NCBI GenBank assembly: GCA_965248195.1
Contig: CBDFIQ010000002.1
Location: 832,001 to 896,000, forward strand
Source of the DNA: Longimicrobiales bacterium
Lineage (GTDB): Bacteria > Gemmatimonadota > Gemmatimonadetes > Longimicrobiales > Gaopeijiaceae
DNA: 64,000 nucleotides
Direction of reading: 5' to 3'
The position numbers and the translations under genes are program-made. The notes beneath the pieces were generated by a model, which saw only the letters and a program-made list of their open reading frames with translations, made no database searches and was not told where the DNA came from. Shown here piece by piece: positions 1,124 through 15,710 of the stretch (position 1 is its first letter; each line of letters starts with the position of its first letter).

Positions 1124-1160
1124 TAGTACCCAATCACGCAGAGACGTCTCCCAAGATCGG

Positions 1161-1275
1161 GCCTGCCATCCTCTGATTAGGGATGCGCCTAACGTCTCTG
1201 CGATTCTGATCTTATAAGGCGAAAGGCTGACCTCACTCGAGCGTGGCGTTACGCTGATCTTGCTCAAAGGCCTGC
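1161..1275 (+). ncRNA. putative IS110 bridge RNA (target-binding and donor-binding loops)
   Basis: 5' hairpin ~1167-1185; stem CGCCT/AGGCG (1186-1190/1217-1221) encloses ACGTCTC and GATCTT; second stem-loop 1224-1273 encloses CTCAC, an AGCGT/ACGCT hairpin and GATCTTG; these match the element junctions; ends approximate. Confidence 0.7.
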
Positions 1276-1300
1276 GGCACCCAACCCAAGGAGGCCAGCC

Positions 1301-2338
1301 ATGTTTGTCGCAGGAATCGATGCTCACGCAACGTATTCGGTGATCGCCATCGTGAGCAACACAGGTCAGCTCGTTGCCGGACCCATCCGGATCAAGAACA
1401 CGCAAGAGGATCGGCTCAATGATCTACTGGAGCAGTATCAGCCCCTGGAGGTGGTCGTCGAGACGAGTCCGGCCTGGCCGTGGCTCTTCGATCGACTCCA
1501 AGAGCGGGGGATCGACTTCGTGCTCGCTCACGCCAAGCGGCTCCGAGTCATCGCCGAGTCCAACTACAAGAGTGACGACATCGACGCCGAGTTGTTGGCG
1601 CGTATGCGACTCGCGGGCCTCATCCCCGAGGTCCATCCGAAGTGCGTCGAGCAGCGGGAGCAGGCGGTACTGCTACGCAACCGGGCACGACTCGTACGCG
1701 AACGCACACGCATGGTGAACCGCATCCATGCCCAGATCCACAACGTCGGGCTTCATCTGGAGCGTGGGCGTCTGCTCACCCAGGATGGACGCCAGTGGGT
1801 GCATGACGTGGCGTGGCCGCTGCTCGGAGCCGAGCGGCGTCTGTTCATCGACATGCAGTGGGAACTCATCGATCAACTCGTACCGATGATCAAAACCCTC
1901 GATCGCAGAGTGGAACACGTAGGCCGCAAGGTCCCCGCTGTAGCTCTGCTCGAGACCATCCCGGGCGTCGGTTCCTATCGGGCATTGCTCATCGCCACCG
2001 AGACGTTGCCCATCAAACGATTTCGTACACCGGGGCACCTGGTCAGCTACGCCGGTCTAGCCCCTCGCTCCTCACAGTCAGGGCTCCGGCCCATCCGCCA
2101 CGGATCGATCCCCGCCGGGGCCAACCGTTGGCTGAGGGGCACCTTCGTCCGGACCGTCGTGAGCCACGTCACTCACGCGCCCGACAGCTGGCTATCACAG
2201 TCGTACGAACTGATCAGGCAACGGCTCGGGTGGCAGGTCGCTCGGGTCGCTACCGCTCGGCGCCTCGCTCGTGCTGTGCACGCGATGCTCCGTACGGGTG
2301 AGGTCTGGCACGATGAACCCGTGGCTCGATCAAACTGA
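1301..2338 (+). CDS. IS110-family transposase/recombinase (345 aa)
   Basis: RuvC-like DEDD motifs GIDAH, VVETS, KSDDIDA; C-terminal TIPGVG and YAGLAPRSSQSG; RBS AAGGAGG at 1288-1294. Confidence 0.93.
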   Translation: MFVAGIDAHATYSVIAIVSNTGQLVAGPIRIKNTQEDRLNDLLEQYQPLEVVVETSPAWPWLFDRLQERGIDFVLAHAKRLRVIAESNYKSDDIDAELLARMRLAGLIPEVHPKCVEQREQAVLLRNRARLVRERTRMVNRIHAQIHNVGLHLERGRLLTQDGRQWVHDVAWPLLGAERRLFIDMQWELIDQLVPMIKTLDRRVEHVGRKVPAVALLETIPGVGSYRALLIATETLPIKRFRTPGHLVSYAGLAPRSSQSGLRPIRHGSIPAGANRWLRGTFVRTVVSHVTHAPDSWLSQSYELIRQRLGWQVARVATARRLARAVHAMLRTGEVWHDEPVARSN

Positions 2339-2805
2339 GATGACACACGATGATGGACCGTACCACGACAGGGGTGAGCTCCGCGCGCAGCATGTCGCAC
2401 GACGACCCTCAGATTCTGATTGAGCCCCCCGCTCGCATAGCAGATCTTCGGACATCCCCGCGCTGGGATGAAACCTGAATAGATGCCTGAGTTCCTCGTG
2501 AGAGGAGACTCACCCAAGATCGGACGCGACGTTGGTACTGAAGGATGAAAAACGGAAGATGATCACGCAGGCCTTGAGCTACAGACCAGTGGACCGAGCC
2601 ACCCCTCCGGGACCCCGGACGGGTAAGGGAGGGCTACGCCCTGTTGACTCCCTTCACCTTATAGATGTTGCGCGTCAATGTGCCGACCAGAAGCGAAGCG
2701 CGCGAACAGCTTTCGCTTTCAAGTCTTCTCGGTACCGCTTCTCCTGGGACCATCTGGTGCTTCCAGAGGGCCAATAGATCCGGCCCTCTTCGTCCATCTG
2801 ATCTA

Positions 2806-2925: not shown

Positions 2926-3102
2926 TCTGGCCTCCGTTCAGGAGTTGATCAGACTACGACTGCATGCCCCCCTGTCGAACGCTGCACCAAGTCTTCGACC
3001 CAGTTTGAAAGGAGGGTTCGGAACCCCCGCCCTCTCTGCCAACGTACGTGAGACACGGAGCACGCAAAGAATTAGAGTAGGGCGAAGGCAGAGAAAACGA
3101 AC

Positions 3103-3552
3103 ATGTTGGGACTGCGAGAGAGAATGGAAGAGAATGGTAGTGCCCCTGGAATCGGGGAGGCCAAGCGAAGCGCGGCAGCTCCTGCGGACCCGGAGGTAGT
3201 AGATAGGCCGCTACGCCGGCGGTTCAGTCCATCGTACAAGCTGCGGATCGTCGAAGAAGCGGACCGGTGCACCGAGCCCGGCGAGGTGGGTCAGCTCCTG
3301 CGGCGCGAGGGCCTGTACTCGTCGCACCTGACGACGTGGCGCAAGGCGGCGCATAGCGGGTCGCTGAAGGCCCTGTCGAAGAAACGCGGCCGCAAGCCGG
3401 AGCGGAATCCGCTGGATGAGAAGGTACGCAAGCTGGAGCGGCAAAACGCACGGCTCGAGAATGAGCTCAGGAAGGCACACCTGATCATCGACGTGCAGGG
3501 AAAAGTTGCGGGGCTGCTGGGGATAAGCCTCGACGACGGGACGAACTCTTGA
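3103..3552 (+). CDS. IS3-family transposase OrfA (HTH)
   Basis: RRRFSPSYKLRIV...LLRREGLYSSHLTTWR plus coiled-coil C-terminus. Confidence 0.88.
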   Translation: MLGLRERMEENGSAPGIGEAKRSAAAPADPEVVDRPLRRRFSPSYKLRIVEEADRCTEPGEVGQLLRREGLYSSHLTTWRKAAHSGSLKALSKKRGRKPERNPLDEKVRKLERQNARLENELRKAHLIIDVQGKVAGLLGISLDDGTNS

Positions 3553-4556
3553 AGGCGGCCGATGAGCTGGCTAAGCACGTCGGTGTAAAACCGGCGTGCG
3601 CGGCTCTCGAGGTCTCCCGATCGACGTTCTACCGTCGTCGAGGCCCATCGACCGGGCAACGGCAGCCCCGCCCGACGCCCGCCCGGGCATTGAGCGAGAC
3701 GGAACGAGGCGAGGTCTTCGACACGCTGTGTTCGGAGCGGTTCGTGGACCGCTCACCCGCCGAGGTGGTGGCCACGCTGCTCGACGAAGAGGTCTACCTG
3801 TGCAGCGAACGCACGATGTATCGTGTTCTGGCCTCCGAGGTGCCGGTTCAGGAACGCCGGGCGCAGCGCACCCATCCCGAGTACAAGAAGCCCGAGTTGA
3901 TGGCCACGGCGCCGAACCAGGTGTGGTCCTGGGATATCACGCGGCTACTCGGGCCGAAGAAGTGGAGCTATTACTACCTCTACGTCATCATGGACATCTA
4001 CAGCCGCTACGTCGTGGGCTGGATGGTGGCGGACCGGGAGAACTCGGCCCTGGCCGGCCGGTTGATCCAGCAGAGCTGCCTGAAGCATGGCGTCCAGCCC
4101 CGGGTCCTGACCCTGCACTCGGATCGGGGAGCTCCAATGACGAGCCAATGCACCGCTCAACTTCTCGCTGACCTCGGCGTGACTCGCTCGTTGAGCCGGC
4201 CTCAGGTGTCGGATGACAACCCGTTTTCCGAGGCTCAGTTCAAAACCTTGAAGTACCATCCCTCGTTTCCCGGGCGGTTCGGGGATCAGGGCCAGGCCAA
4301 GACGTTGTGTCGATCGTTCTTCCGCTGGTACAATGCCGAGCACCGCCATGGCGGTATCTCGATGCTAACCCCCGAGCAGGTCCACTTCGGGAACGCCGAT
4401 CAGGTCATTGCCGGCAGGAAATCCGTGCTCCGCGAAGCATGGGCCGCTCATCCCGAACGCTTCGTCACAGGTGTGCCGAAGCCCAAACCGCTCCCGGAGG
4501 CCGTCTACATCAATCCTCCCATCCCTTCCCTCACCACACAGGATATTGCTCTCTAA
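3549..4556 (+). CDS. IS3-family transposase OrfB (DDE integrase core)
   Basis: PNQVWSWDIT, LHSDRG, DNPFSEAQFKTLK motifs; TTGA overlap with the orfA stop. Confidence 0.92.
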   Translation: MKAADELAKHVGVKPACAALEVSRSTFYRRRGPSTGQRQPRPTPARALSETERGEVFDTLCSERFVDRSPAEVVATLLDEEVYLCSERTMYRVLASEVPVQERRAQRTHPEYKKPELMATAPNQVWSWDITRLLGPKKWSYYYLYVIMDIYSRYVVGWMVADRENSALAGRLIQQSCLKHGVQPRVLTLHSDRGAPMTSQCTAQLLADLGVTRSLSRPQVSDDNPFSEAQFKTLKYHPSFPGRFGDQGQAKTLCRSFFRWYNAEHRHGGISMLTPEQVHFGNADQVIAGRKSVLREAWAAHPERFVTGVPKPKPLPEAVYINPPIPSLTTQDIAL

Positions 4557-4803
4557 TTAATCCCGTAGAGTGTCCCATTGTCGTTGACAGGTTCCGCCGG
4601 ACGCAACCATTTGTTGGACGCCCCTCACACTAAACGATGAGGGCTCTCTGTCTCACCCCGAACGTTGGGGTGGCCGTTACTGTGGGTCCGTACTCTTGGG
4701 TTGCCCACTTCGGTCCTGCCCTTCACATTATCCTGACCCGTCAGAGGGCTGTTTGAAAAGAGTGCCGGTCAGAGTCGTGAATCCCGCTGGATTGGAGGGT
4801 GAA

Positions 4804-15449: not shown

Positions 15450-15531
15450 GGTGGGGTACCGAAGCGGTCAAACGGGGCAGACTGTAAATCTGCTGGCTTA
15501 GCCTTCGTAGGTTCGAATCCTACCCCCACCA
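15450..15531 (+). tRNA. tRNA-Tyr(GTA)
   Basis: cloverleaf GGTGGGG/CCCCACC, anticodon loop CTGTAAA, long variable arm, GTTCGAATC; CCA not encoded. Confidence 0.96.
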
Positions 15532-15551
15532 TTGGATGGCACAAAGGCTTT

Positions 15552-15625
15552 GCGGGAGTAGCTCAGTTGGCTAGAGCATCAGCCTTCCAAGCTGAGGGTC
15601 GCGGGTTCGAGTCCCGTCTCCCGCT
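15552..15625 (+). tRNA. tRNA-Gly(TCC)
   Basis: GCGGGAG/CTCCCGC acceptor stem, CTTCCAA loop, GTTCGAGTC. Confidence 0.96.
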
Positions 15626-15638
15626 CTAGAAAGGCGGC

Positions 15639-15710
15639 GCTCCGATAGCTCAGTGGTAGAGCGCCTCCTTGGTAAGGAGGAGGTCCCGGGTTCAAGTCCC
15701 GGTCGGAGCT
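15639..15710 (+). tRNA. tRNA-Thr(GGT)
   Basis: GCTCCGA/TCGGAGC acceptor stem, TTGGTAA loop, GTTCAAGTC. Confidence 0.96.

Follow-up and report, generated by a model that had tools for sequence, protein, structure and literature searches.

Our results show that the window analysed here, a stretch of 64,000 nt from the Longimicrobiales bacterium assembly GCA_965248195.1 (contig CBDFIQ010000002.1, positions 832,001-896,000 of the forward strand), holds a 1457-bp IS110-family element of IS1111-like architecture, which very probably homes by RNA guidance into an integron attC-like repeat. Its ends, core and target, the covarying matches between guides and flanks, and the stems of the RNA are those read from sequence comparison (Table 1). 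A previous sequence-only reading had recognized an IS110-family recombinase and a junction-matching guide RNA readable from the letters themselves, and both of these stand. The motifs that it quoted are also all present where it placed them, but its specifics, namely the site of the RNA, the core, the junctions, the guides and the layout, had to be replaced.

Results

Comparison of copies in the source genome gave 13 left ends and 11 right ends of the element. Every left end reads GATTC, then TG, then ATCTTATAAGG, and every right end reads TATAGA followed by TG, with CTGCGC after the core in 10 of the 11 and TTGCGC in the window copy. The right-end pattern had 13 matches, 11 of them element ends; the two excluded carry another dinucleotide after the motif, and the exact pattern misses both. 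Contigs of runs X15 and X3 contain the empty site, joining 1207/1208 to 2675-2677. Since TG is exactly what the junctions on both sides share with the natural empty sites, the element spans 1209-2665 around a TG core. Among the 13 left ends, seven belong to uninterrupted 1457-bp copies with all ORFs intact (the six others differ from the window copy by 9-12 mismatches), three to copies that keep both ends but are interrupted by an insertion, and for the last three no right end lies within 3.3 kb. No circle junction was found in contigs of runs X1, X3, X15 and X17, four of the 24 listed, which proves little because only contigs were available.

The boundaries proposed earlier, 1153-2512, are contradicted by all other copies, whose common sequence runs from about 1186-1196 to about 2705, and the proposed CC core gives way to the TG seen at junctions and empty sites. 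What had been taken as the right junction (2509-2523) continues into one and the same internal sequence at all 11 of its occurrences and is therefore not a junction, and the supposed left junction motif (1144-1158) occurs in one of 13 left flanks, that of the window copy. The 12 other left ends all lie at sites unrelated to the proposed target, the outcome that had been named as refuting. Across 44 loci, no flank matches the right end over a longer stretch than the 11-nt repeat shared by 1150-1160 and 2513-2523; the next matches are of 10 nt (once) and 9 nt (five times), and the repeat is most likely the upper tail of chance. It was rejected as a long core or target duplication, because one of its copies is internal and the other unique.

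The four sequences proposed as guides in two upstream loops are not guides; the RNA predicted to carry the guides lies downstream, at about 2372-2529. ACGTCTC (1192-1198), read as a left target guide, is outside the element and within the target repeat; it occurs in 7 of 13 left flanks, with ACGGAT in 4 and 2 truncated. GATCTT (1208-1213) is DNA in which the core G precedes the opening five bases of the element; it is the -10-like box. Loop 1 as a whole straddles the true boundary and varies with the target. In loop 2, CTCAC is mostly accounted for by a covarying helix over the Shine-Dalgarno sequence, and GATCTTG is present in 4 of 64 left ends of relatives. The upstream end folds no better than its shuffles (z 0.29). 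The supposed IS621-type layout likewise turns into an IS1111-like one, with guides downstream, 92 nt of non-coding sequence on the left and 327 nt on the right.

Table 1. Features of the element and its flanks (positions in the window)
Feature	Position	Strand	Basis or remark
Unique flank outside the element (formerly proposed left junction)	1144..1160	+	1/13 left flanks
Left part of attC-like target: inverse-core box GCCTAAC 1187-1193, spacer, inner box ending GATTC 1202-1206	1187..1206	+	Copies and empty sites
TG core, left copy	1207..1208	+	Junctions and empty sites
Short left end	1209..1300	+	-10-like box, sub-terminal inverted repeat, helix over Shine-Dalgarno; not a bridge RNA
Sub-terminal inverted repeats	1213-1226 and 2650-2663	+	12/14 matching, first 7 perfect
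Left-end helix over Shine-Dalgarno GGAGG 1290-1294	1225-1234 / 1291-1300	+	Covariation
IS110-family DEDD recombinase, 345 aa, intact	1301..2338	+	PF01548 and PF02371 above cut-off
Predicted bridge/seek RNA in long right end, ends approximate	2372..2529	+	65-sequence alignment
Target-binding loop: outer stem 2372-2381 / 2422-2430, inner hairpin 2394-2406	2372..2430	+	Helices 1 and 2
5' target guide CGCGCAGCA, complementary to core and right target flank	2384..2392	+	Covariation
3' target guide GATTC plus core 2412-2418, handshake-like bases 2419-2420	2412..2420	+	Covariation
Candidate 5' donor guide	2437..2447	+	8/9 complementary to core and left end if two bases bulge
3' donor guide ATAGA plus core 2479-2485, handshake-like bases 2486-2487	2479..2487	+	Matches to element end
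Internal RNA sequence (formerly proposed right junction): 3' arm of hairpin 2488-2512, linker, 3' strand of GAUC helix	2509..2523	+
Right terminus: TTGACT -35-like box 2644-2649, sub-terminal inverted repeat 2650-2663, last base 2665	2644..2665	+
TG core, right copy	2666..2667	+	11/11 true right ends
Right part of attC-like site, decayed: first base T for C, no GTTAG core box after	2668..2709	+	Profile match

Relatives were sought in 301 genomes of the order (11 matching), in genome contigs (44 loci) and among metagenomes (the best 80 of 196); among the matches listed, the closest named records are Gemmatimonadota. With the metagenomes represented by those best 80 of 196, 147 loci had a protein match, 125 of which reach the right end and 110 of which have a parsable RNA. 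The 5' guide matches the right flank at 5.91 of 7 positions against 2.23 after shuffling (77 loci, 44 distinct guides), and the 3' guide matches the left flank at 4.29 of 5 against 1.98 (62 loci, 28 distinct guides, two misparsed loci being left out by the core filter), with 93-100% agreement at the four core-adjacent positions. Both scores were reached in 0 of 10000 shuffles, a count that overstates significance because related elements are not independent. In the window copy, GATTC at 1202-1206 is matched by the 3' guide, the variant right flank costs the 5' guide one G-T wobble, and handshake-like bases 2419-2420 equal the first two bases of the element. Across relatives, the second of these is identical to the base in the donor in 33 of 39 cases, a count reached in 5 of 10000 shuffles (mean 24.7).

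The donor module gave a more divided result. The last three pre-core bases of the 3' donor guide equal the last three bases of the element in 59 of 59 cases (41 AGG, 16 AGA, 1 GGC and 1 AGC), and the first donor handshake base agrees with the base that opens the right target in 44 of 52 cases, a count reached in 0 of 10000 shuffles (mean 30.2). In the candidate 5' donor guide, ATA and GAT are invariant in 65 of 65 sequences; no covariation with the donor was found among the 34 relatives compared, the guide being unchanged in 5 of 5 with left end ACCT, and 2443-2447 can also pair inside the RNA with 2517-2521. Of two other candidates, AAGATC at 2516-2521 is not supported as a donor guide, its positions varying irrespective of the donor, and a second donor loop at 2557-2564 was discarded, being not conserved in the alignment and deleted in one genomic copy.

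The RNA alignment holds 65 of 78 distinct regions, the 13 left out being near-duplicates or regions with long insertions. The hand-drawn structure pairs 89.7% of its cells against 27-46% in slid controls, and 26 of its 39 pairs are changed on both sides; helix 4, the GAUC helix, is 84% paired and shows little covariation. RNAalifold recovered only part of the hand-drawn structure and placed its other pairs elsewhere. The structure rests on covariation and not on energy, because single-sequence folds are no better than shuffles (z -0.59 for the downstream piece folded alone). An Rfam search of the whole 64-kb window at the gathering threshold returned three tRNAs only, from three adjacent genes at 15450-15710.

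A scan of the linear form for sigma-70 promoters and terminators found none. In all 70 distinct right ends a spacer of 17 nt separates the TTGA box from the core G. The -10-like box at 1208-1213 agrees with the consensus at 3 of 6 positions, and its A2 and T6 are conserved in each of 64 left ends. These features fit a promoter made at the circle junction, as described for ISEc11 in the accessible text of PMC11187229. The outer four pairs of the left-end helix scored 3.56 against 3.24 when shuffled, a value reached in 0 of 5000 (39 of 64 left ends with both motifs), and this helix may damp translation.

The insertion position in the attC-like repeat is fixed in 13 of 13 left ends and 11 of 11 right ends, and TAAC stands at the same spacing before the left end in 11 of 13. 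A target profile built from six natural empty sites had 68 matches in the genome, 43 of them at E <= 0.05, and right junctions of the element account for 10 of these; the matches delimit a repeat family of about 101 nt with a RYCTAAC-type box at the start, GTTAG at the end and complementary end boxes, clustered at C1 34-48, 468-506 and 1081-1104 kb. The bottom strand of the repeat is predicted to form a hairpin with two unpaired bases directly beside the TG core. A perfect copy of the 14-nt target is present at two places in the genome, each inside the repeat. No full-length integron integrase above cut-off was found in the genome; a C-terminal integrase fragment lies at C1 1112.7-1113.3 kb (238.7 bits, below the cut-off of 265). 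This fragment (G000:C1:1112697-1113260, L001) is without its N-terminal third and stands beside a transposase-like ORF. Complementary end boxes, a hairpin with unpaired bases, clustering and a nearby integrase are features of attC sites, and by these sequence features the target is one box of a host attC-like repeat family, a putative attC. The site in the window is itself isolated and decayed on its right side, where the flank matches the profile at model positions 21-63 only (E 0.003).

Two other insertion sequences are found close by. An IS5-family element with two ORFs on the minus strand (312-1127) lies about 60 bp upstream of the attC box and has about 11 more copies in the genome; a two-ORF rve-type insertion sequence (3030-4580) has more than 50 near-identical copies and matches sequence inside some IS110 copies.

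Relatives show the same machinery at other addresses. L075, L076, L077 and L081 are inserted 3 nt further into the same attC-like repeat and L095 about 7 nt earlier, and L008, L010 and L018 lie in other attC-like families. A subclade of about 50% identity (L133, L143, L145, L149 and L154) sits at the GTTAG core box, in L133, L143 and L145 after a complete attC; its core G is the first base of the box, so that the right junction recreates a cassette-like start. Other targets are CTCTGCG repeats (L113, L117 and L123) and palindromes inside repeated coding motifs (L009, L011, L013, L019 and L092), some of the latter with a right core of CG or AG and a left core of TG, which bears on the cut position. 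The guides of L040, L063, L086, L094 and L148 match right flanks that are presumably TG-starting ends of other insertion sequences. At L007:2609-3113, a locus also listed as L044, TG forms the joint between a right end and the 3' guide region of that element's own RNA gene, and 248 nt of the right end are duplicated, which fits a half-match insertion into its own guide sequence.

The recombinase has both the DEDD RuvC-like domain and the Tnp domain with its SG serine. Residues D7, E54, D92, D95 and S260 are invariant in 26 homologues and would be catalytic by analogy with the IS621 motif D11/E60/D102/D105/S241 (accessible text of PMC11208158). Identity is 31% to ISHvo10 (E 1e-46), the haloarchaeal IS110 elements being the best named plasmid relatives (31-34%), and 25% over 252 aa to the ISPa21 transposase (E 8e-5). 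ISEc11, IS4321 and ISPa21 are 24-26% identical to the window protein over partial lengths and 30-38% to each other; profile similarity reaches E 1e-8 to ISCro4 and 4e-7 to IS621. ISPa21 groups with ISEc11 and IS4321, and the window transposase falls outside their clade, also in a quick tree of 88 proteins. Grouping with ISPa21 was rejected (AU p 0.0004, with four outside references and long branches), and so was, among 20 proteins, a single clade for eight attC-targeting members (AU p 1e-84), a group picked after the protein tree was known.

A literature search, with ISfinder, subscription papers and bioRxiv supplements outside its scope, returned no paper on this transposase lineage, and the recombinase clade may already be named in literature outside that scope. 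Two 2026 preprints contain no mention of 'attC' or 'IS1111', and comparison with plasmid proteins together with PMC5034289 yielded no named attC-targeting element.

Discussion

The mechanism proposed here is a known one, the enzyme lineage is distinct, and no new principle is involved. Earlier papers on the IS1111-attC group reportedly include Tetu and Holmes 2008 and Post and Hall 2009. This group comprises ISKpn4, ISPst6, ISPa25 and ISPa21, the last being the name of the element on pME-1a (PMC6739498), and seekRNAs have been described for the attC-targeting ISKpn4 and ISPst6 (Siddiquee 2024, PMC11187229; both sources in their accessible parts). The window element resembles the group in its attC target, in the long downstream non-coding region holding the guide RNA, in its sub-terminal inverted repeats, in its predicted junction promoter, and in having the top-strand match before the bottom-strand one, the guide order of IS1111 in the consulted text of PMC11187229. 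However, in a comparison of clade, position and orientation that covers one member of the group, ISPa21, the latter lies opposite to the cassettes, whereas the window element has the same direction and sits about 13 nt inside the first box. Terminal extensions come to 4 bp on the left, 2 bp on the right and a 2-bp core, 8 in all, against 7+3 or 6+3 in IS1111, totals that depend on how the core and the repeat edges are counted.

The IS1111 clade is also separate by protein, the window transposase not being related over its full length to ISEc11, IS4321 or ISPa21. In the consulted part of Durrant Supplementary Table 1 (PMC11208160), the IS1111-attC names are common to row 8, whereas row 603, which by eye corresponds to the homologue P0103, has no ISfinder name and forms a separate cluster. 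An IS1111-like layout outside the IS1111 clade is not unprecedented, because Siddiquee (PMC11187229, accessible text) places a few elements with inverted repeats among IS110-type transposases. ISHvo10 stands apart on a long branch and has long non-coding regions on both sides; in the portions of the literature examined, no attC targeting is described for it or for other haloarchaeal IS110 elements. With IS621 and ISCro4 (IS622) the element shares the DEDD plus serine residues, a two-module RNA, a 2-nt core, a long 5' guide, a short 3' guide and two handshake bases. In IS621 a 9-nt guide is likewise combined with a short guide and two handshake bases (PMC11208158, consulted text); here this geometry is read on the other strand. 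In IS621 and ISCro4, however, the RNA lies in the left end and the core is CT, whereas here it lies in the right end with a TG core, the donor guides sit in a multi-way junction, and the protein similarity is remote.

By analogy with IS621 and with the ISEc11/ISKpn4 work, circle formation, junction transcription, RNA binding and strand exchange would proceed as follows. The element would circularise, and the joined ends would put the -35 box 17 nt from the -10 box formed by the core G and five left-end bases, switching on a transcript with the transposase ORF, its ribosome-binding site held in the helix, and the guide RNA in the 3' region. The recombinase would bind this RNA, whose target loop could pair with 9 nt of the top strand (core and right flank) and 6-7 nt of the bottom strand (left flank and core) while the donor module pairs with the circle junction. 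Strands would then be cut and exchanged at the TG core by the DEDD-plus-serine site, the handshake bases assisting. Insertion would break the attC beside the two bases left unpaired in its hairpin, with the element oriented like the cassette, and the site should therefore no longer fold for the integrase. The consulted text of the papers on copy-out, half-match and excision does not settle how excision takes place.

Alternative explanations were weighed against this one. A left-end bridge RNA of the IS621 type, with a CC core and an element at 1153-2512, has practically no probability left: its motifs exist and so does the 11-nt repeat, but the comparison of copies refutes it, as do the loop lying across the boundary, the scarcity of GATCTTG and the unremarkable fold. 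We consider it improbable that the target loop (about 2372-2430) is the sole guide, with the protein reading the sub-terminal inverted repeats and the 3' module serving as scaffold or precursor. Seek RNAs of 70-100 nt are indeed the main species and sufficient for ISEc11 in the accessible text of PMC11187229, and the candidate 5' donor guide, which can pair inside the RNA, follows donor changes in none of five cases; but the 3' donor guide tracks the last three bases of the element throughout, across four sequence types, and the base after the donor-module core follows the target, so that pairing of the donor module with DNA is needed.

It is about equally unlikely that the folded attC hairpin is needed in addition to the guide match. 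The core does lie directly beside two bases left unpaired when the bottom strand folds, the sites used by many relatives are palindromic or repeated, and the title of a preprint on ISPpu10 reports a dual match of sequence and structure. However, L076 and L081 lie further into the repeat and L095 earlier, each with matching guide changes, and the perfect 14-mer occurs in the repeat only, so that sequence alone explains the choice of target.

In this lineage, attC targeting appears to have been reached independently of the ISPa21/ISKpn4 group, by guide reprogramming. A more far-reaching proposal is one that we offer tentatively, as possible rather than probable: that this is a bridge-recombinase branch outside the IS1111 clade, with the full IS1111-like layout, which repeatedly attacks attC by rewriting its guides (three or more positions in one arm, and the integrase crossover point in a separate subclade), and whose 5' donor guide may stay hidden within an internal GAUC helix of the unbound RNA that opens on the circle junction alone, a kind of built-in switch that has not been described for IS621.

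The literature already describes guidance by RNA, the downstream RNAs of IS1111 and multi-loop donor modules (Durrant 2024, PMC11208160, accessible text), and attC targeting as well. What the relatives examined here add is a series of bridge recombinases that nature has reprogrammed, with TG as core, a downstream RNA and 44 distinct 5' guides, useful for working out guide rules and handshake pairing outside IS621. The finding also suggests that more than one lineage of RNA-guided elements has come to use attC sites as targets. About a dozen of this genome's cassette sites are interrupted in this way, which should freeze parts of the cassette arrays.
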